A stretch of 64,000 nucleotides of DNA from Escherichia coli (GTDB lineage Bacteria; Pseudomonadota; Gammaproteobacteria; Enterobacterales; Enterobacteriaceae): NCBI RefSeq assembly GCF_024700885.2, contig NZ_CP117016.1. One strand, 5' to 3'. Positions within the stretch are counted from its first letter, which is position 1. Each line of letters opens with the position of its first letter. This document shows, in pieces, positions 7,836-47,226 of the stretch. A program made the position numbers and the translations under genes. Under the pieces are notes generated by a model. It saw only the letters and a program-made list of their open reading frames with translations. It was not told the DNA's origin and made no database searches.

Positions 7836-9296
7836 TTACTTCACGGAATATTTCGCCACGGTCGCTTTCGCACCATGCGCTAATAAAGACAAGTACGCTT
7901 CCGTCACTTTTGCAGTAAACAAGCTATTGTCTGGCAAATCATCACCAAAGATTGCCTTAATCGCCAGCAATGACTGGACGCGCGCTTTCCCTTCGGCACT
8001 ACTTTGTACAGCCTTCTGAATAACAGGTAACAGTGGGTCACTGATTTCTATCGGATTTCCCTGTTCATCAACACCACCCACATAACGCATCCAACCTGCG
8101 ACGCCCAGCGCCAGCAGATCGAACTTGCTGTCATGCGCCAGATGCCAGCGAACAGAATCCAACATCCGCTGTGGCAATTTCTGGCTGCCATCCATCGCAA
8201 TCTGCCAGGTTCGATGACGTAACGCCGGGTTGCTATAGCGTGCAATTAATCGGTTAGCGTAATCTTGCAAATCAACGCCCTGCACTTTCAGCGTCGGCGC
8301 TTGTTCCTGCAACATCAAGCCATACGCCGCATGACGATAATGTTCATCTTCCATACAGTCATTAATGTGCTGATATCCAGCAAGATAACCCAGATACGCC
8401 AGGAATGAATGACTGCCGTTGAGCATGCGCAACTTCATCTCTTCATAAGGCAGCACATCGCTAACCAGTTCGGCTCCCGCTTTTTCCCATTCCGGACGTC
8501 CGGCAACAAAGTTATCTTCGATTACCCACTGGCGGAAAGGTTCACAGGCAACGCCAGCAGGATCGCGCACACCGGTAAGTTGTTCGATTTTCGCCAGCGT
8601 ATCCTCTGTCACTGCGGGCACAATACGGTCCACCATTGTTGATGGGAAAGTCACGTTATCTTCGATCCATTGTGCCAGTTTTACATCAACGGCTTGCGCG
8701 TAGGAAGTGACAACGTCACGCATAACATGACCGTTTTCTGGCATGTTGTCACATGACATGACGGTAAATGCGGGAAGTCCTGCCGCTTTACGGCGAGCCA
8801 GCGCCTCGACAATCACCCCTGTTGCAGTTTTCGGCTGGTGGGGATTTTGTACGTCGGCAACGACCATCGGGTGATCGAGCATTAACTGTCCGGTCGCCGG
8901 AGAGTGGAAATACCCTTTTTCGGTGATTGTCAGAGAGACAATCGCGATTTGCGGTTCACACATCGCAGCCAACACGGTTTCTAAGCCATCAATCTGTACG
9001 TGCAAGGCTTTTTTAACGACGCCAACGACGCGAGCCGTCCACGCATCGGCCGACATTTCCGCAACGGTATAAAGATTATCTTGCTGTTGTAAATCGGCAA
9101 TTTGCTGTTCGCCGCCGATTAAGTTGACCTCATAATATCCCCATTCACTGAAATGTTCCGTAGCAAGAATATCGGCATACACGCCCTGATGCGCACGGTG
9201 AAATGCACCAAAGCCTAAATGAACAATTCTTGGGGCCAGGTTATTACGATCATAAACAGGGAGTGTCGCTTTTGCTGATAACAAATTATTTCCCAT
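7836..9296 (-). CDS. ydfI: mannitol/mannonate dehydrogenase-family oxidoreductase
   Basis: 486-aa ORF; neighbourhood. Confidence 0.88.
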
Positions 9297-9384: not shown

Positions 9385-10752
9385 TTAAAGACTTCTGGAA
9401 GGTTGCGCAGCTCTGACAACACGCGGTTGATCTTCCGCAGCGTCTTCCAGCGCACTTAAATCACGGTCTTTCACTTCTGGCATTTTCAGCGCAGAGATTA
9501 AACCAATCACTGAATATGCCATGATCATAATGGCGATCGGATACCAGGATTCCGTCATGGTGCAGAAAATACCCGCCAGGATAGGACCAAAACCGGAAGC
9601 GATAAGACCACCAATTTCTTTAGAAATCGCCATCCGGGTAAAGCGGTTTTTACAGCCGAACATTTCTGCCATGGTAATGTTTTCCAGAGCAAATAATCCC
9701 AGCACCGCACAGTTATGAATCACAATCAGTGCAACCATAATGGTGCTCGGGGCATAGCTTTTATCTACGATGATAGAAAGCATTGGCCATGCCAGCACAA
9801 TCGCGGAGGTATTCATAATAATATACGGGATCCGGCGACCAATTTTATCGGATAACCAACCAAGGAACGGAATGGTCATAAAGCCGAGAATCGAACTGAT
9901 CATCAATGCATCTGTTGGAATTGCTTTGTTAAACAATAACGTCTGTACTAAATAGCCTGCAAGGAAAGTCTGAATTAAACCGGAGTTACCAGCCTGACCA
10001 AAACGCAGCCCTGTTGCCAGCCAGAAGGATTTGCTCTGGAACATGCTACCAGCAGGTGCAGGTTTTGCTGTCGGTTGGTTGCTGTCGTTAACCTTCTCAA
10101 AGACCGGGCTTTCTTTAAGATTCATACGCAACCAGATAGCAAAGACCATCACGACAACGCTCGCCAGAAACGGTATACGCCATCCCCACGCCAGCAGTTC
10201 TTCTTTACTGAGAATGAAGAACATAAAGGCCCAGATTGCCGTTGCGCTTAAGGTTCCGCAGTTAGTTCCCATAGCCACAAATGAGGAGATAATTCCGCGC
10301 TTACCTTTTGGTGCATATTCCGCCAGCATCGTGCCGGCACCGGAAATTTCCGCGCCTGCCCCCAGCCCCTGAATAATACGCAGCGTCACCAGCAAAATTG
10401 GCGCAAACACACCAATTTGTGCATAGGTCGGCAGCACACCAATTAAGGTGGTACAGATCCCCATCATAGTGATGGTAATAAAGAGCACTTTTTTACGCCC
10501 GATTCTGTCGCCCATTTTGCCGAAAATAAATGCTCCGACAATACGCGCCACATAACCTGCACCGTAGGTTCCCATTGCCAGAATTAACGCCATTGCCGTT
10601 GATGATTCAGGAAAAAATATTTCATGAAACACTAACGCTGCGCCGAGCGAATATAACTGGAAATCCATAAATTCAAGCGCAGTGCCCAGCCATCCCGATA
10701 CTGCTGCTTTCACCAAATCCTTAGTGCTTCTTTCGTGTTTTTCTATTGTCAT
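9385..10752 (-). CDS. ydfJ: MFS transporter YdfJ (intact)
   Basis: 455-aa multi-pass ORF directly adjacent to rspB with no intervening prophage. Confidence 0.85.
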   Translation of the reverse strand: MTIEKHERSTKDLVKAAVSGWLGTALEFMDFQLYSLGAALVFHEIFFPESSTAMALILAMGTYGAGYVARIVGAFIFGKMGDRIGRKKVLFITITMMGICTTLIGVLPTYAQIGVFAPILLVTLRIIQGLGAGAEISGAGTMLAEYAPKGKRGIISSFVAMGTNCGTLSATAIWAFMFFILSKEELLAWGWRIPFLASVVVMVFAIWLRMNLKESPVFEKVNDSNQPTAKPAPAGSMFQSKSFWLATGLRFGQAGNSGLIQTFLAGYLVQTLLFNKAIPTDALMISSILGFMTIPFLGWLSDKIGRRIPYIIMNTSAIVLAWPMLSIIVDKSYAPSTIMVALIVIHNCAVLGLFALENITMAEMFGCKNRFTRMAISKEIGGLIASGFGPILAGIFCTMTESWYPIAIMIMAYSVIGLISALKMPEVKDRDLSALEDAAEDQPRVVRAAQPSRSL

Positions 10753-31826: not shown

Positions 31827-31991
31827 ATGGCAAAGCCGATCATCACGCTCAATGGCCTAAAAATCGTCATTATGTTGGGAATGCTGGTCATTATTCTCTG
31901 CGGTATCCGTTTTGCCGCCGAGATCATCGTGCCGTTTATTCTCGCATTATTTATTGCTGTTATATATAACTTATTTCGCATAACACATTGA
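31827..31991 (+). pseudogene. tqsA: tqsA 5' fragment (45 native codons fused to 9 island-derived codons)
   Basis: [45 protein letters not shown] then IYNLFRITH*; the reading frame continues at 47218. Confidence 0.85.
31955..31963. repeat. attL core (tgctgttat)
   Basis: Identical 9-mer at both junctions of the interrupted tqsA frame. Confidence 0.7.
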
Positions 31992-32036
31992 TTTAATTAA
32001 ATAATTAACACCGCAAAAAGTGCCAAAAATCGCAAA

Positions 32037-32100
32037 ATGACTACACCAGTGACTACACCGTTCGGTGCACTGTATGAAACAACGTGGAACAAATAGACAC
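32037..32100 (+). repeat. left-end arm repeat (tgactacacc x2 then aacaacgtggaacaa)
   Basis: Near-identical to 47067-47135 in the same orientation. Confidence 0.7.
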
Positions 32101-32179
32101 AAGAAATATACAGGCGGATCATCTTTCCAGGGGGAAGCACACCAATTCATGAGGGGCGTTAATGTCGATATGGGGATCC

Positions 32180-32580
32180 CCACCTACCGGAATTTTTTTC
32201 CGGTTAAACGTTAATCAGGCTGGTGGGCTTTACCTGTTCGGTAGGTGTTATGATTATCGTAATACCTTTCCCCCAATGGGGTAAAAGCATCAACCGTAAC
32301 GAAAGTCGTTATGGTTGCCACTGATACCCCAAATTTGGGTATCACGAGTAAGCCCCAAAATCTGGGTGTTACTCTTACTACCCAAACTACGGGTAGTTTC
32401 CGTAGTTTCATGGTCGAGTTGCAGATCTGCAACTCCCCCATTAACCACAGGCGAATTTCCGCCTTCGGTCATTCCTTAATCATCTGCGTAATCATAATGA
32501 TTATTCAGCAAGCGCAATTTTGCGCTTTGCTTAAAGTTCAGCGAGTTACCGCGCCGACTTCCTCAAATTGAGGTTTCCGA
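32180..32580. other. palindrome-dense non-coding region (candidate packaging site or structured RNA)
   Basis: Inverted repeats read directly: cacctaccg/cggtaggtg, gatacccc-aaat-ttgggtatc, ctaccc/gggtag, ttgcagatctgcaa, gcgcaattttgcgc, cctcaaattgagg. Confidence 0.4.
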
Positions 32581-32984: not shown

Positions 32985-34646
32985 TTACACCCCGCTAAAT
33001 TCTTCCAGTTTCTGGCGGTGGCTGTCGCTTATATCAAAAGCAAAATCCTCATGCTCTGCCTGGAATGTACCAAACGCCATCAGCGCCGCCACGCTCGGGT
33101 CTATCTTGTTCGGTGATTTTTTCTTGTTCGGCTTGATATTGGCGTTCGCGTCACTCTGCATCACGACGTTACTCATCGACCAGGACAACACCGGATCGCC
33201 ACGATGCACAATCACCCTGCGGTTAACAAAAACTTCGAACGATTTCGCCGCCGGACTGAATCTGAGGTAGGTTTGCGGGAACGGCTCCACCTCAAAACCT
33301 GCCCCCTGTAATTGCGTTCTGAGATGCGTGGCGTTCCACGTATCAAAGCCCACCAGCCTGATATTAAATTTCTCCGCGTCCTGCATGATGTCATCTCTGA
33401 TCCGGTCGTAATCAATGCAGTCGCCAGGCGTTGTGCGTATCCAGCCTGCTTTAGCCCACTGACGATAGATGGCGCGGTTTTTATTGGCGGGGTTCTGTAG
33501 CTGAAATTCCGGCAGATAGTGACGGGAAACCAGCATAATGGTTTTACCGACCGGAAAGGCATAGCACACGCTGGAAATATCGCTGGTTGATGATAAGTCC
33601 AGCCCCGCGTAACACTCCTGGCCGTGTAAATCTTCCTCCGTGAACGTTCCGGCACACTCAGCCCATGCGCCGTTACCCATCCACGGGGTAGCCCCCTGGC
33701 ACCAGATATTAAATCGCTTTGTCATCATCTCCACCCACTGCGACGGAATACCCCGCGCTTTCTGGATGGTTGAGGCCAGTTTTTCACGATCGACGGAAAC
33801 ATCAATATTAGGGTTCGCCTTTATCCACATCGCCGGATCATCAACCTCGTTTTCGTCGTCCAGTTCGTAAATCAGTACAAAAATTGAATCGTTAACCTCT
33901 TCGCCGTCCAGGATCTGGCAGCAATAATCATAGTGCTGCTTACAGGCTGAAACGACGTTGCTGCCTGATGTGGTAATGGCAAATAACAGCCCTTCGGGAC
34001 GTGCGCCCATCCCCAGCTCAAGCGCGGAATAAACGCCGTTATCGGGGTGCAAGTGGTATTCGTCCACGATGGAAAGGCTGGGGTTTGTTCCCTCGATGGT
34101 TGCCGCTTTTGCTGCCAGCGGCTTTAACAGGCTGTTGCTTTTCGGGTGTATCACCTTATGCGCCTGAATATTCACCCGCCTGCGTAACGGTCGGGATAAA
34201 AGGCACATCTGACGCGCATCATCAAAGACGATCCGCGCCTGGTCACGGCTCACCGCTGCGGTGTAGATATCCTGCTGACCGTTCTCCATAATCAGAAACC
34301 AGTTAGCCAGAATCGCGGCGGTCGTGGATTTCGCATTTTTGCGCGGCACTTCGATAAAGGCGCTCGTGTATTTGCGCCGTCCGGTGGCCTTAACCTTAAA
34401 GCCGAGGATGCACGCAAAGGCGAACTGCTGCCACGGCTCCAGCTCAATGGGTCTGCCACGCATCGGTCCTTTTACGTGCGGGCACACCCTGGAAAAGGCA
34501 ATAAACCGCTCCACAACCTCACGATCGAACGTGTAAAGGGGGCTTTTAAGGTCCGAAAAGTACCGTTTAACGGCCTGTTTCAGCCGTTTACAGGCCGGAA
34601 TTTTGCCCGTTTTTACGTCTTCTGCGTACTTATTCCAGGCGGTCAA
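32985..34646 (-). CDS. terminase large subunit
   Basis: 553-aa ORF with an N-terminal ATPase-like region and a C-terminal nuclease-like acidic region typical of TerL; overlaps terS by 17 nt. Confidence 0.85.
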   Translation of the reverse strand: MTAWNKYAEDVKTGKIPACKRLKQAVKRYFSDLKSPLYTFDREVVERFIAFSRVCPHVKGPMRGRPIELEPWQQFAFACILGFKVKATGRRKYTSAFIEVPRKNAKSTTAAILANWFLIMENGQQDIYTAAVSRDQARIVFDDARQMCLLSRPLRRRVNIQAHKVIHPKSNSLLKPLAAKAATIEGTNPSLSIVDEYHLHPDNGVYSALELGMGARPEGLLFAITTSGSNVVSACKQHYDYCCQILDGEEVNDSIFVLIYELDDENEVDDPAMWIKANPNIDVSVDREKLASTIQKARGIPSQWVEMMTKRFNIWCQGATPWMGNGAWAECAGTFTEEDLHGQECYAGLDLSSTSDISSVCYAFPVGKTIMLVSRHYLPEFQLQNPANKNRAIYRQWAKAGWIRTTPGDCIDYDRIRDDIMQDAEKFNIRLVGFDTWNATHLRTQLQGAGFEVEPFPQTYLRFSPAAKSFEVFVNRRVIVHRGDPVLSWSMSNVVMQSDANANIKPNKKKSPNKIDPSVAALMAFGTFQAEHEDFAFDISDSHRQKLEEFSGV

Positions 34647-38167: not shown

Positions 38168-39325
38168 TTAATCGTCGTCCTGTGGCAGTTCCAGAATCTT
38201 GATCGCGTTCGAATCCACCACGCCACCGCCTAAATATTTCTGCGTGAAAATTTTGATGAAGCCCGGCTCTGTGAGGTTGTCCGGTCTGGTGCGAACACCT
38301 GTTTCGTGATCAACAATGTAGTAACCGCGTTTGAAGTCACCCAGGGCAATAACGTTATCCGGCATAAACTCCAGATATTCGACCGGAAGGCCCAGTAACG
38401 TATCAGGATCACCCGCCTGTAAACGGTCGCGCCAGATGTAATCACCGTTCGCGTTCTTCACCTTCTGAAGTTTTGCCGCCGTCGTGGAGTTAACCACCCA
38501 GACCGCGTTTTTGCGGTATTTTTTACGTAATGCAAATTTCAGGTCGATCAGCGGGTCCGCAGATGTCCACGCCAGAGATTCGGAAGGTTTAATTACCTGC
38601 AACGTACCAAAATCACGCTCTTTGTCGTTCTTCTCTGCACGGGGTACGGATAAAAAGCCTTTTGCTTTTTTGTCACCGTCGCCCACAACCAGATCGCTTT
38701 CTTCGGTTTCCGTGAAGTTGTCGCCAATCTCGCCCGTCAGCCATGAAAGGATGTCCACATCGGAAAAATCCACGATTTCCTGCGTGGTGCGCGGGTACGC
38801 ATAGACCGGATACAGCTTAATGCTCACCTCGTTAATCTGCGGGGTGCTGGTCTGTTCGCGTGCCTTACCCTCTTCACCGTGGTTAACGGTCGCACCGCCA
38901 GCGGAAACAAGCTGCTTAAACTCGTTGCTGCTGATTTTCTTCACGGTACAGATGCGGCGCATGGTGGATTCATCCGTCAGCATTCGCATGATTTCGGTGT
39001 TCAGTTCGGGGATAACGGTATAACCACCATCAGCGGGAACGCCTGTACTTAATGCGCGGGTTTCACCTGTCAGAATGTAGTGACGTAGTTCGGCTGGGTC
39101 AGTGGTCTGACTGCTTTTACCTGGCTTGCTGCGCTCTTCGTCTGCAATGGCTTCAAGGCGGGAAATGTCTTTATCGAGGGATTCAGCTTTAGCGCGTAAT
39201 TCGTCAAATTTTGCGCCCTCAGCATCGTTAAGACTGCGGTTTTCTTTTTCCGCGTTCTCCAGCATGTCGCGCATCTGATTTTTAATGGCGGTTTTCTGCT
39301 GGCGTAATTCGATTATTCTCGGCAT
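38168..39325 (-). CDS. major capsid protein (HK97 fold) with N-terminal delta domain
   Basis: 385-aa ORF; N-terminal ~100 aa charged and coiled-coil-like, then a capsid-like region. Confidence 0.85.
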   Translation of the reverse strand: MPRIIELRQQKTAIKNQMRDMLENAEKENRSLNDAEGAKFDELRAKAESLDKDISRLEAIADEERSKPGKSSQTTDPAELRHYILTGETRALSTGVPADGGYTVIPELNTEIMRMLTDESTMRRICTVKKISSNEFKQLVSAGGATVNHGEEGKAREQTSTPQINEVSIKLYPVYAYPRTTQEIVDFSDVDILSWLTGEIGDNFTETEESDLVVGDGDKKAKGFLSVPRAEKNDKERDFGTLQVIKPSESLAWTSADPLIDLKFALRKKYRKNAVWVVNSTTAAKLQKVKNANGDYIWRDRLQAGDPDTLLGLPVEYLEFMPDNVIALGDFKRGYYIVDHETGVRTRPDNLTEPGFIKIFTQKYLGGGVVDSNAIKILELPQDDD

Positions 39326-39362
39326 AAAAAAAGTCCTGGGGTTAAGTAAGGAACTCCAGGAC
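39326..39362 (-). terminator. terminator-like hairpin + U7 immediately 5' of the capsid start codon
   Basis: Minus strand reads gtcctggag…ccaggac then ttttttt then ATG; the AGGA Shine-Dalgarno lies inside the 3' stem arm. Confidence 0.5.
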
Positions 39363-39582
39363 GCGGCAAAAACTCAACCGTTTTTCATAAGGAAATCAGC
39401 AATCGCACCGATCGTTTTCCCGCCTGGTAATGAATATTGGCGAGAACATTAACAGGCGGAAAAGTGGCCCCAGCGTCCTGGCACCACGGGCGAGAATAAT
39501 CATGATTCAGTTCGGGTAAAATATGCCGATCCGCTCAGTGAACAACGTGGAACAACCACGAACAAATAATTTACAAAACATG

Positions 39583-39605
39583 ACAAAAAGCCGGATTGCT
39601 CCGGC
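39583..39605 (-). terminator. intrinsic terminator after the replication-module genes
   Basis: Hairpin gccggagcaatccggc followed by a T-run on the minus strand, just below the 93-aa ORF stop. Confidence 0.55.
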
Positions 39606-39612
39606 TGTGTGA

Positions 39613-39894
39613 TTATCTGTCCTGGTAATTTCGCCATATTTCATTACCAGCACCATCCATACCCATTTCGGCATAAGTGCGATCGACCGCCTTTTTCAGG
39701 TCTCCGTAGTTATCCGGCGGCTCCGGTGGCCTCTGTGCCTTCCTGGAACATTCCAGCCGTCGCATCGTGATGTGATGCCGTTCCTTGTCTGTCTCCACCA
39801 GTTGCATGACTTCACCCCATCGCGCCGACGCTCTCCGGTAAAAGCCTTTCGCCTCCAGTTCTTCCGCTATGCGGTCATGTACCATCGTCCCCAC
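39613..39894 (-). CDS. hypothetical protein
   Basis: 93-aa ORF, operonic with ssb. Confidence 0.5.
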   Translation of the reverse strand: MGTMVHDRIAEELEAKGFYRRASARWGEVMQLVETDKERHHITMRRLECSRKAQRPPEPPDNYGDLKKAVDRTYAEMGMDGAGNEIWRNYQDR

Positions 39895-40599: not shown

Positions 40600-40865
40600 T
40601 CGTTTAAAAAGTTTTGAGTTGTGCCTCCCCTTGTCTACCTTATCTACCTTAGTGGCCCTCATACCAGTAATGGCGCGGCTTTCAGCGGGGTAGAGTGCTT
40701 TTATCCACTATCTACCCCGTGTCTACCTCCCTGTCTGATTCAGGTAAAATCAGGTAGAGAGGGTAGATAGTGGGTAGACAGTAAAAAAAGGTTATCTACC
40801 TAACTTAATGCACTGAATTAAATGTATTTTTCTTTACTCAGGTAGACAGGGTAGACAGCAATTAC
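40600..40865. repeat. iteron-rich candidate replication origin
   Basis: At least 12 copies of a 7-9-bp unit (ggtagaca / tctacc) in both orientations, immediately 3' of the primase gene. Confidence 0.7.
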
Positions 40866-44379: not shown

Positions 44380-44475
44380 AGCTACCTCGATACTTTCGCT
44401 ATCGTTGGTGGTTAGAAGCCCGGTTAGTGTTAGCGCACTGCCGGGTTTCGTCGTTTCTGCACCTTGCGCCAACAA

Positions 44476-45258: not shown

Positions 45259-45528
45259 TTAATGAACTGCCTTGCAGCTATCCTTCCAGGCCAGAACCTC
45301 GGATAAAGACCAGCCAACGGAACGACCGCCAAGTTTACGACGTGATGGGAATTGTCCGGCCTTTTCCAGGCGGTAGCGACACGTACGGCTAAGGCCGGTT
45401 AGTTTTTCGCATTCTTTTTCACGTATAAACCGATCAGTGCTTAACACTATTGCCCCCCTTTCGTTTCTTAAAGAGTCATCAGGTGTCTTATTGTGTCGTA
45501 TTGTTCCCGCTAGAGTGATGAATGGCAA
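45259..45528 (-). CDS. alpA: AlpA-family transcriptional regulator / excisionase-like
   Basis: C-terminal …LTGLSRTCRYRLEKAGQFPSRRKLGGRSVGW… HTH typical of AlpA; true start probably internal. Confidence 0.7.
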   Translation of the reverse strand: MPFITLAGTIRHNKTPDDSLRNERGAIVLSTDRFIREKECEKLTGLSRTCRYRLEKAGQFPSRRKLGGRSVGWSLSEVLAWKDSCKAVH

Positions 45529-45720
45529 ATACTGAGGATGTATGATTTACAGAAAATGAAACAGTAAGAATAAAATTTTTTAAATTCATGTTAATACAAA
45601 GGCATAAAATATTGTTCCATGCCTTTTTTCTCGCTCTTTAAAGAGTGATTCGCTAGTGTACAAAAAACCAGTAACGCATTAAAAATCAGCTACTTATAAA
45701 TCCGTACGCTTTTTCGCCTC

Positions 45721-45760
45721 TTGTTCGTAGTTGTTCCACATTGTTGCTCATTGTTGCACG
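45721..45760. repeat. internal copy of ACAACGTGnAACAA motif (reverse orientation) upstream of alpA
   Basis: Reverse complement reads acaacgtgcaacaatgagcaacaatgtggaacaactacgaacaa. Confidence 0.55.
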
Positions 45761-45812
45761 TTGTATCTGTTCGCATATCCAGTATGCGCATACTGAAAAA
45801 ACACGAAAAAAA

Positions 45813-47042
45813 TTATTTTCTTCTGGCTACGGGTAGCGTGGTTACGTTTTCATGTGTTCCCGCCAGTATCCCTAACCGCTCCGTCCACATATCCAGCGCA
45901 TTGCGTTTCGCATCCAGATAACGGGAATGATTATAAACTCGCTGCATTCCTGGCATCTGGTGGCCTGTAAGCTGCTCCACGACATGCGGATCAACGCCTA
46001 AATCGTTCAGCATGGTTGTAAAGGTGCGCCGGATGTCATGCAGTGACCAGTGAGGGTGATTAAGCCTCCTGTACGCTAATCTTCCATACTGCGATACGCT
46101 GGCCTCCTGTTTCACTTCCCCCAGCAATAAGCCCGTGTGCCTGTTCTGCTCCACCAGCTGCGTGACGAACGGCAGGATCGCTTCCGGTATGGGCCGGAAT
46201 ATTGCGACCTTCGTTTTGCTGTGCTCCTTCGGAACGGTCCATAGCATTTCCGTAAAATCCCACTCCCCGATCTCCGATAACCTCAGTTCTACCGTTCTGG
46301 CTCCGAAGACAATCAGGAGGCGGATTAACGCGACGTAGTAAGGGGAGAATATTTTTTTGTCCAGTGCCTGCAATAATTCGCCAAGTTCTTTGTTACTTAA
46401 GACACGTTCGCTTATATCCGGTTTTTTCCCAACGTCCGCAACGTTCAGATCGTCCAGAACGTTGCTGATTGCATAGCGCCGCCTACGGCAGAACTTAAGC
46501 GCCTGTTTGCACGCCTGTAGCACGAATCCGGCAGTAACAGGCGTTCGCTTTGCCACCTGGTCAAAACAGGCCAGCCAGTGCCGTAGCTCGCATTTATCCA
46601 GCGGCATAGCACCAATCTGCTGTATTACGTGATTATTAAGTCGCCTTTTCAGGGCGATATAATCCACGCGGTTTTCCTTTACGTAATACTCAAGCCAGTA
46701 GGTGAGCGCATCGCCAACCGTTACGGGCTTTAACGCTTCCTGTACGGTGTAATTCATCTCATGACGTGGATTTTTCCCCTCAGCCAGCCATGTGCGACAC
46801 TGTGCGGCTTTTTCCCTGGCTGCTTTCAGGCTCAGATCAGGATAACTTCCCAGCTTAATGCGTTCGGGTCGTGTCTCCCTTCCCGTTCCGGCCCTGTATG
46901 TGAAATACCAGGTCAATTTCCCTGATGTTAAATATTTCACGCTCAGGTTTCCGCCATCACTATAAAACGTGTTTTTCTCCGCTGGCTTACCATGAAGTTT
47001 CCTTAGCAAGGTATCGCTCAGTTTGTTCATTGCTCTGCTCAC
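45813..47042 (-). CDS. int: tyrosine recombinase / integrase
   Basis: 409 aa with C-terminal catalytic region (HDIRRT…RVYNHSRY); adjacent to attR. Confidence 0.9.
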   Translation of the reverse strand: MSRAMNKLSDTLLRKLHGKPAEKNTFYSDGGNLSVKYLTSGKLTWYFTYRAGTGRETRPERIKLGSYPDLSLKAAREKAAQCRTWLAEGKNPRHEMNYTVQEALKPVTVGDALTYWLEYYVKENRVDYIALKRRLNNHVIQQIGAMPLDKCELRHWLACFDQVAKRTPVTAGFVLQACKQALKFCRRRRYAISNVLDDLNVADVGKKPDISERVLSNKELGELLQALDKKIFSPYYVALIRLLIVFGARTVELRLSEIGEWDFTEMLWTVPKEHSKTKVAIFRPIPEAILPFVTQLVEQNRHTGLLLGEVKQEASVSQYGRLAYRRLNHPHWSLHDIRRTFTTMLNDLGVDPHVVEQLTGHQMPGMQRVYNHSRYLDAKRNALDMWTERLGILAGTHENVTTLPVARRK

Positions 47043-47066
47043 GTTTTACCCCCTCTTTACGAAAAA

Positions 47067-47135
47067 GTGACTACACCAGTGACTACACCGATCGTTGCAC
47101 AAAGGGCTACAACGTGAAACAAGCTGGAACAAGGA
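47067..47135 (+). repeat. right-end arm repeat (gtgactacacc x2 then acaacgtgaaacaa)
   Basis: Matches 32037-32100; lies between int and attR. Confidence 0.7.
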
Positions 47136-47217
47136 AAATCACAAATCTATTGATAATCAAAAACATAATGCACAGCCTGAAACATTATGAAACAGCAAAA
47201 AACACTAAATGATAAAA

Positions 47218-47226
47218 TGCTGTTAT
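47218..47226. repeat. attR core (tgctgttat)
   Basis: Direct repeat of 31955-31963. Confidence 0.7.

Follow-up and report, generated by a model that had tools for sequence, protein, structure and literature searches.

A genomic island of Escherichia coli carries four clusters of TTGTTC units repeated at an exact period of 10 bp, one in each attachment arm, one between int and alpA and one upstream of the major capsid gene. With a probability that we put at about 0.57, these clusters serve a single protein of the island as operator arrays; this protein is most probably AlpA, in the role of a dual-purpose recombination directionality factor (RDF). AlpA monomers would bind co-operatively, one per helical turn, to at least three TTGTTC(C/G) units, bending the DNA; in the att arms the arrays, placed beside doubled GGTGTAGTCACT motifs that are the putative arm-type sites of Int, would help to build the excisive intasome. 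The known auto-activation of AlpA would act in cis through the inverted five-unit array that follows int, and the three-unit array upstream of a predicted weak promoter would switch on the capsid and packaging operon.

The window, i.e. the whole stretch of 64,000 nucleotides that was analysed, contains an island of 15.3 kb that, judged on gene content and size, is a capsid-forming PICI of the EcCIEDL933 kind. It is inserted in tqsA, which is annotated as split into a 5' and a 3' fragment, one on each side of the island. All island genes are on the minus strand, in the order int, alpA, icd-like genes, primase gene, ssb, a perC-like gene and an HK97-type packaging operon running from the capsid gene to terL; the int product is homologous to IntS of KplE1 (E = 1e-14). 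The main landmarks are the following:

31955-31963, no strand: attL core TGCTGTTAT, the left island junction inside tqsA, with 9-bp identity to 47218-47226, within repeat D15.
32985-34646, minus strand: terL, through which the packaging operon extends.
38168-39325, minus strand: major capsid gene of HK97 type, with which the packaging operon begins; from the RefSeq annotation of an identical island.
39613-39885, minus strand: perC-like gene, part of the replication/perC module.
45259-45447, minus strand: alpA, 62 amino acids, Phage_AlpA family, excisionase-type winged helix.
45813-47042, minus strand: int, a tyrosine recombinase with an N-terminal Arm-DNA-bind_3 domain.
47218-47226, no strand: attR core TGCTGTTAT, the 9-bp direct repeat partner of the attL core (repeat D15).

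Downstream of the primase gene (pri), a 21-nt direct repeat TCAGGTAGAGAGGGTAGATAG (40750-40770 and 40838-40858, 88 nt apart) probably marks the iterons of the island's own origin. A perfect 18-nt inverted repeat ATCAGGCTGGTGGGCTTT at 32214-32231 and 33345-33362, 1113 nt apart, encloses the final small ORF together with the 3' end of terL. The Rfam scan of the island returned nothing relevant except a sub-threshold match to the SymR antitoxin RNA at 44380-44452 on the plus strand (33 bits versus a gathering score of 61, E = 0.005), which sits between an icd-like gene and the YlcI/YnfO gene.

The sequence-only reading of this DNA had claimed that one motif recurs at four places of the element, and all four are found. 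gtgaacaacgtggaacaaccacgaacaa is present at 39538-39565, between the terminator of the replication module and the capsid gene; its close relative between int and alpA, at 45721-45770, is the only one of the four in inverted orientation and forms with the 39.5-kb copy a 25-nt inverted repeat, 92% complementary; the two terminal copies are contained in a 76-nt direct repeat at both island ends (32034-32109 and 47064-47139). ACAACGTGNAACAA has four exact matches in the window, at 32079, 39542, 45751 (minus strand) and 47109, versus 0.00 expected from 100 dinucleotide shuffles, and ten matches versus 1.86 expected when up to two mismatches are allowed. However, the motif is better described as TTGTT(C) units with an exact 10-bp period in all four clusters; the unit consensus is TTGTTCCACG, where TTGT is invariant and positions 5-10 are degenerate, and TTGTTN5TTGTT gives 8 matches versus 0.30 expected, 7 of them inside the island. 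The part of the earlier claim by which one factor acts at the four sites agrees with this common motif, which fits a single sequence-specific protein; the single 14-mer on which it was built gives way to a phased array of three to five units as the functional unit. The arrays and the motifs that accompany them in the arms are:

32039-32059, minus strand: far-arm doubled 12-bp motif, GGTGTAGTCAnT twice, proposed Int arm-type sites.
32073-32102, minus strand: far-arm array, three TTGTTC units with 10-bp spacing, of which the two strongest lie at 32078-32092.
39536-39565, minus strand: capsid-upstream array TTGTTCGTGG TTGTTCCACG TTGTTCACTG, three units.
45721-45770, plus strand: int-alpA array TTGTTCGTAG TTGTTCCACA TTGTTGCTCA TTGTTGCACG TTGTATCTGT, five units.
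47069-47089, minus strand: int-side doubled 12-bp motif, GGTGTAGTCACT twice, 27 nt upstream of the int start codon.
47093-47132, minus strand: int-side arm array TTGTTCCAGC TTGTTTCACG TTGTAGCCCT TTGTGCAACG, three to four units, between the core and the doubled motif.

When a three-unit array is defined by at most three mismatches over 18 core positions, the window contains four, all within the island, versus 0-1 per shuffle. The same definition yields 21 arrays in 94 kb of island DNA versus 0 in 168.6 kb of flanking E. coli DNA; the motif is thus island-specific and non-random, as the sequence-only reading required. A relaxed array search in 1.16 Mb of mostly unrelated viral DNA gave 9 matches; two of these are true arrays of PICIs, and a third corresponds to P4-type TGTTCACC iterons in a row. 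As a separate observation, the int gene is flanked by inverted arrays (45741-45765 and 47108-47132, 80% complementary, 1342 nt apart), and proteins bound at these two arrays could loop out int.

A motif search across the element and its relatives had been suggested as a check, and it recovered the arrays throughout: arm arrays in about 130 loci, whose AlpA is either of type A (62 aa, at least 89% identical) or of type B (69 aa, 56% identical), and the int-alpA array in all 86 type-A loci. These islands are inserted at several different chromosomal sites. In the loci that reach the island ends, each arm present has an array beside the doubled motif, in both types; in type-A islands the int-alpA array directly follows the stop codon of int, at positions -330 to -264 relative to the start of alpA, and it is always inverted, with 3-6 units. 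All the related capsid-forming islands that were examined, including those with the diverged capsid modules of loci L007, L054, L067 and L115, have a capsid-upstream array, which always precedes the ATG of the HK97-type capsid gene by 190-215 nt, and the same array occurs with type-A and with type-B AlpA; classical PICIs, including EcCICFT073, have no capsid-upstream array of this kind. Array cores and phase are kept across the relatives while spacers and unit number (3-6) vary, a pattern that, at the level of sequence comparison, is a phylogenetic footprint. The arrays also persist when the replication protein is exchanged, being present in islands that encode a primase-family protein, a RepA-type helicase or a DUF927 protein, and they do not depend on the presence of PerC.

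Two further islands with diverged capsid modules, L113 and L116, carry three TTACCC units at the capsid-upstream position (L113 545-564, L116 9791-9820), suggesting that this position is occupied by an exchangeable three-unit operator. A scan for further TTACCC-type islands returned only these two; near int and xis of L116 no clear TTACCC array is found, and only degenerate two-unit matches are present beside the doubled motif.

Each island end is the same composite module, i.e. an array followed, 13-22 nt on, by the doubled 12-bp motif, and GACTACACC has two exact matches in each arm and none in the rest of the window. In the int-side arm the array stands between the core and the doubled motif and also overlaps the int promoter region, whereas the far-arm array lies beyond the doubled motif as seen from the core. 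After excision, the two doubled motifs would have their centres about 90 and 143 bp from the core of the circle, one on each side. The two components of the module seem to follow different proteins. The tail of the doubled motif agrees with the N-domain variant of Int in 68 of 69 arms, whatever the AlpA type: the KY variant is associated with CACT in 24 of 25 arms and the RH variant with (T/C)AAT in 44 of 44. Conversely, the arrays do not covary with the Int N-domain in these 69 arms, and the base next to TTGTTC in these arrays seems to go with the type of AlpA: it is C with type A (58/58) and G with type B (10/10), although the RH variant of Int is found with both AlpA types. This covariation comprises three lineages, with two informative contrasts. 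In the internal arrays position 7 is mixed (C, G or A), in an AlpA-type comparison of three lineages only.

The doubled motif has counterparts in other satellites. In attP of the HE-PICIs a co-oriented doubled motif TGTATTGC lies 81 and 132 bp either side of the centre, and its authors could not decide between Int and AlpA as its binder (PMC10111431). This motif corresponds to the doubled GGTGTAGT motif of the present island and not to the TTGTTC array; similarly, attP of P4 is annotated with tandem 12-bp arm repeats that flank the core at distances of 75 and 134 bp. The covariation of the tail, together with core distances that resemble those of P4 and of the HE-PICIs, makes Int the likely binder of all three doubled motifs, which are likely Int arm-type sites here, in P4 and in HE-PICIs. 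Since the terminal TTGTTC copies are part of the attL and attR arms, beside these putative Int sites, the factor shared by the four arrays would be first of all a recombination factor, i.e. an RDF. HE-PICI-type islands differ from the present one in a third AlpA type, in a gap of just 2 nt between the stop codon of int and the start of alpA, which leaves no int-alpA spacer, and in the absence of phased arrays; they gave no help in a search for islands with the same AlpA and an unrelated Int, which found no informative locus.

Upstream of the capsid operon the array is part of a compact region, with these elements:

39589-39606, minus strand: intrinsic terminator, stem 39606-39589 followed by TTTTGT, which ends the replication/perC module.
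39566-39578, minus strand: conserved box TTTTGTAAATTAT, directly upstream of the capsid-upstream array.
39493-39520, minus strand: predicted weak late promoter, -35 TTTACC (39520-39515), 16-nt spacer, -10 TATTCT (39498-39493).
39326-39365, minus strand: hairpin with a U7 tail that immediately precedes the capsid ATG; its 3' arm contains the Shine-Dalgarno AGGA.

Three different hairpins occupy the terminator position upstream of the array across the island lineages, and TATnnT is conserved in all capsid-upstream variants; together, the variable terminator and the conserved TATnnT indicate that the capsid operon needs its own promoter, probably an activator-dependent one. A promoter scan upstream of the capsid gene gave no candidate above threshold, and the promoter proposed here is a weaker guess, based on conservation. 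From its predicted start site the array would lie at about -80 to -51, a usual location for an upstream activator. The TTTTGTAAATTAT box is retained, as TTTGTAAATTAT, in L113 and L116 despite their TTACCC units. The putative leader of the operon (39326-39490, minus strand, about 160 nt) is strongly structured (z = -4.4), and its U7 hairpin has a 7-bp stem that is kept with a different loop in L115; by covering the Shine-Dalgarno sequence, this hairpin may act as an attenuator or a translational block and provide a second control step.

A different arrangement is seen in classical PICIs, where three TTGCA-type units at 10 bp are found upstream of a lambda-E-type capsid gene; they are clear in L004 (about 21263-21292) and L005 (about 18808-18840) and looser in EcCICFT073 (L329, about 9860-9900). 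The CII site of lambda consists of two TTGC repeats 10 bp apart (TTGC-N6-TTGC) that straddle the -35. The TTGCA arrays recall this box and may represent a different late-gene activator input; they fit the CII-type family better than the TTGTTC arrays do, for which a CII-type site was rejected, the core being TTGT and not TTGC, with 3-5 units that lie upstream of the predicted -35 and not around it.

Between int and alpA two further elements accompany the array:

45500-45528, minus strand: candidate PalpA, TTGCCA, 17-nt spacer, AACAAT.
45597-45629, no strand: conserved terminator hairpin, between the int-alpA array and PalpA.

The TTGCCA of the candidate promoter is invariant in 54 distinct sequences, and a short ACAAT pair at 10-bp spacing (45504-45490, minus strand) overlaps its predicted -10; this pair extends to four CACAA/CCCAA units in L003, L004 and L007. 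The stem of the terminator shows compensatory changes in the same three loci. Just upstream of this hairpin, at 45645-45671 on the minus strand, there is a nearly invariant block CTGGTTTTTTRTACAYTRGYGAATCAC, which together with the hairpin could form a short regulatory RNA or an insulator. The claim of a motif upstream of alpA is therefore borne out as to its presence; however, the array is inverted and 215-265 bp upstream of the candidate PalpA, so that activation from a promoter-proximal position finds no support.

AlpA of the island (WP_000953272.1) matches the Pfam family Phage_AlpA with E = 6e-17; its AF2 model (pLDDT 87) has the GIsul2 excisionase 8c3t as best PDB match, with TorI and RdfS also matched, and BLASTP identifies TorI as a distant homologue (E = 6e-5). 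A close relative has been studied in EcCICFT073, whose Int and AlpA share accessions with those of L003 and whose AlpA is 93.5% identical to that of the window; EcCICFT073 has arrays at both arms and a six-unit array between int and alpA. In this island AlpA activates a PalpA fusion, over-expressed AlpA leads, without helper, to int-dependent excision and replication, a Pint-lacZ fusion is unchanged by AlpA, and helper phages switch on alpA (PMC6092414), through a factor that is not named in the later literature searched. Induction and transfer of the capsid-forming EcCIEDL933 also require alpA. In the literature searched, no paper was found that defines where PICI AlpA binds.

The closest parallel to the proposed organization is the IntS/TorI system of KplE1 (CPS-53), in which a small winged-helix RDF reads 10-bp units and the arm sites overlap the int promoter; TorI and IntS are distant homologues of AlpA and Int, and TorI binds GTTCG/GATCG/GTCCG sites (PMC2951348). 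In the K-12 sequence TorI sites I3-I5 read GTTCGtcatgGTTCGcttcaGATCG, i.e. three units at exactly 10 bp, and lie between the core and a doubled 12-bp GGGTAAAA, just upstream of intS, in the same order as on the int side of the present island; the doubled GGGTAAAA, with its conserved TAAA, fits the IntS arm-type sites as reported (PMC2951348). KplE1 differs in having TorI sites on the int-side arm only, in the repression of int by TorI and IntS, in the absence of a known TorI array before structural genes and in the location of torI at the far end of the prophage and not beside int. More generally, RDF sites are direct repeats one helical turn apart, at least three adjacent operators are needed, and they are reused at distant promoters (PMC7498355). 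Apl of phage 186 and Cox of P2 share with the present case these helical-turn repeats, at least three adjacent sites, and one kind of array at att and at far promoters; indeed, P2 Cox has cox-boxes at att and at promoters and activates from such boxes a satellite late promoter, PLL of P4 (PMC3936717). However, both are HTH proteins of a different branch, their remote sites are in the lysis-lysogeny switch and not before a capsid operon, and at PLL the RDF is supplied by the helper and not by the satellite. P4 itself has an AlpA homologue, Vis, annotated as excisionase and transcriptional regulator; it differs in having no capsid operon of its own, and its late genes are activated by the zinc-finger proteins Delta and Ogr. 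In P4 (L332) the annotated 'ori type 2 repeats' at 9176-9205 are three tandem decamers TGGCTTTAAG, which on the other strand are cox-boxes, upstream of vis in the Cox-activated PLL region.

Several lines favour AlpA as the binder, whose identity, like the sign of regulation, we infer from these comparisons. The arrays are 10-bp direct repeats with at least three units, they are found within att beside the doubled motif and again away from att at predicted promoters, and the island encodes a small winged-helix protein of RDF type; phased units reused in this way at att and promoters are the hallmark of RDF sites. The homologue TorI binds units of like spacing, in the same order relative to the Int sites, and the arm-array base seems to follow the AlpA type while the doubled motif follows Int, this last line being weak when taken alone. 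Furthermore, the same arrays occur with primase, RepA or DUF927 islands, which excludes the replication proteins. AlpA, one of the two candidates of the sequence-only reading, is thus the best one on geometry, TorI homology and fold. Other observations count against it. The int-alpA array is inverted and distant from the best PalpA candidate, with a terminator between them; Pint-lacZ of EcCICFT073 is indifferent to AlpA despite the array upstream of int; position 7 is mixed in the internal arrays, and one capsid-upstream array is found with both AlpA types; the TTACCC array of L116 has no clear counterpart near its own int and xis. RDF sites, moreover, are usually confined to one arm, whereas here both arms carry arrays and the far-arm array is distal to the doubled motif.

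The arrays might instead be bound by an outside factor, either a helper-phage protein, e.g. its own excisionase, or a host regulator of the OmpR/PhoB type, so that they would sense the induction of the helper; we consider this unlikely. OmpR/PhoB-type response regulators also read 10-bp direct repeats, the tor boxes of TorR being CTGTTCATAT, but the units match the tor box at just 5-6 of 10 positions. For a helper protein speak the helper-triggered alpA switch with its unnamed factor (PMC6092414), the three 10-bp repeats TGGCTTTAAG of P4, reverse complement of the cox-box and upstream of vis, and the activation of PLL by the helper RDF Cox from cox-boxes in the promoter region (PMC3936717), along with a capsid-upstream array that is unchanged with AlpA type and the TTACCC array of L116 that lacks a clear partner near its own int and xis. 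Nevertheless, the arrays are integral to both att arms, beside the Int sites, in every island of the int/alpA family and at several chromosomal sites, over-expressed AlpA alone induces excision and replication without helper, and the 300 nt upstream of the capsid gene have no match in the phage collection. As the arrays follow the int/alpA module of the island and no phage has the capsid-upstream region, the helper-encoded activator, the other candidate of the sequence-only reading, is less likely. The specific version, by which a helper excisionase or another helper protein binds the TTGTTC arrays and triggers alpA, excision and the capsid operon together, is quite improbable; if true, that protein would be the inducer of Gram-negative PICIs that has long escaped identification.

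In lambda, too, Int reads arm-type sites in the form of direct repeats that follow each other at intervals of about 10 bp, the Int of the island has an Arm-DNA-bind_3 domain and arrays are present in both arms, all of which would suit arrays that are read by the N-terminal domain of Int, with the internal copies allowing Int to regulate alpA and the capsid operon. Such a role of Int is distinctly improbable, since it is the doubled 12-bp motif, and not the array, that covaries with the N-domain variant and has the layout and core distances of the P4 arm repeats and of the HE-PICI motif; in KplE1 the 10-bp GTTCG units are RDF sites and it is the doubled GGGTAAAA that fits Int arm-type sites, and the arm arrays differ between L004 and L005, whose Int N-domains are nearly identical from residue 28 on. 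It is very unlikely that only the terminal copies are functional and that the internal ones are inert relics, pieces of att arms duplicated or captured when modules were joined. PICI modules are clearly shuffled, and the similarity of the capsid-upstream copy to the far arm extends past the array itself, with 77% identity in 35 nt; but internal arrays hold cores and phase while spacers and unit numbers change, they keep a fixed capsid-upstream place in every lineage examined, L007, L054, L067 and L115 included, and L113 and L116 substitute a different three-unit array at the same position. A fixed place, kept cores and swapped arrays are what is expected from selection on an operator. Finally, some units contain TGTTCAC, resembling the type-1 iteron TGTTCACC of P4, which could make the arrays replication iterons or crr-like sites for the P4-alpha-like primase of the island. 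The probability of this is negligible and it was rejected: the arrays do not covary with the replication module, being identical in islands of the primase, RepA and DUF927 kinds, the island has its own iterons downstream of pri (40750-40858, TCAGGTAGAGAGGGTAGATAG), and none of the four arrays is at the origin.

Further candidates were considered and discarded. The AlpA of Pseudomonas aeruginosa acts in antitermination at an ABE, a GGGACG that is placed between the -35 and the -10 and recognized by a Q21-like protein of eight or more helices; this AlpA, Q21-like, helical and with more than 140 residues, is unrelated to the 62-aa winged helix, and the PICI motif and its position differ from the ABE, so that only the name AlpA is shared. 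The PerC-like protein (39613-39885) was rejected as binder of the arm arrays and of the int-alpA array, since these are also found in islands that have no perC; it may still act as co-factor at the promoter of the capsid operon. DnaA boxes were also rejected: TTGTTCCACA resembles TTATCCACA, but most units have no CCAC. No support was found for a cos or pac site for TerS; by analogy with HK97-type phages, cos should be between hnh and terS.

An RDF that doubles as transcription factor is an already well-known class of mechanism; in the literature searched, however, we found no description of the putative operator and of the four places where it occurs, nor an assignment of the doubled motif to Int. 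The doubled 12-bp motif, left unassigned in HE-PICIs, is predicted to belong to Int. AlpA is the master switch of Gram-negative PICIs, and the array provides a concrete putative operator for it at four mapped places, where a few mutations are predicted to uncouple excision from the expression of the late genes; this would be useful for engineering PICI-based delivery vehicles. The co-ordination of int and alpA with the head genes, as the sequence-only reading had envisaged, would then have a simple basis: if the AlpA reading is right, one protein of 62 amino acids could couple excision, its own amplification and the production of satellite capsids.
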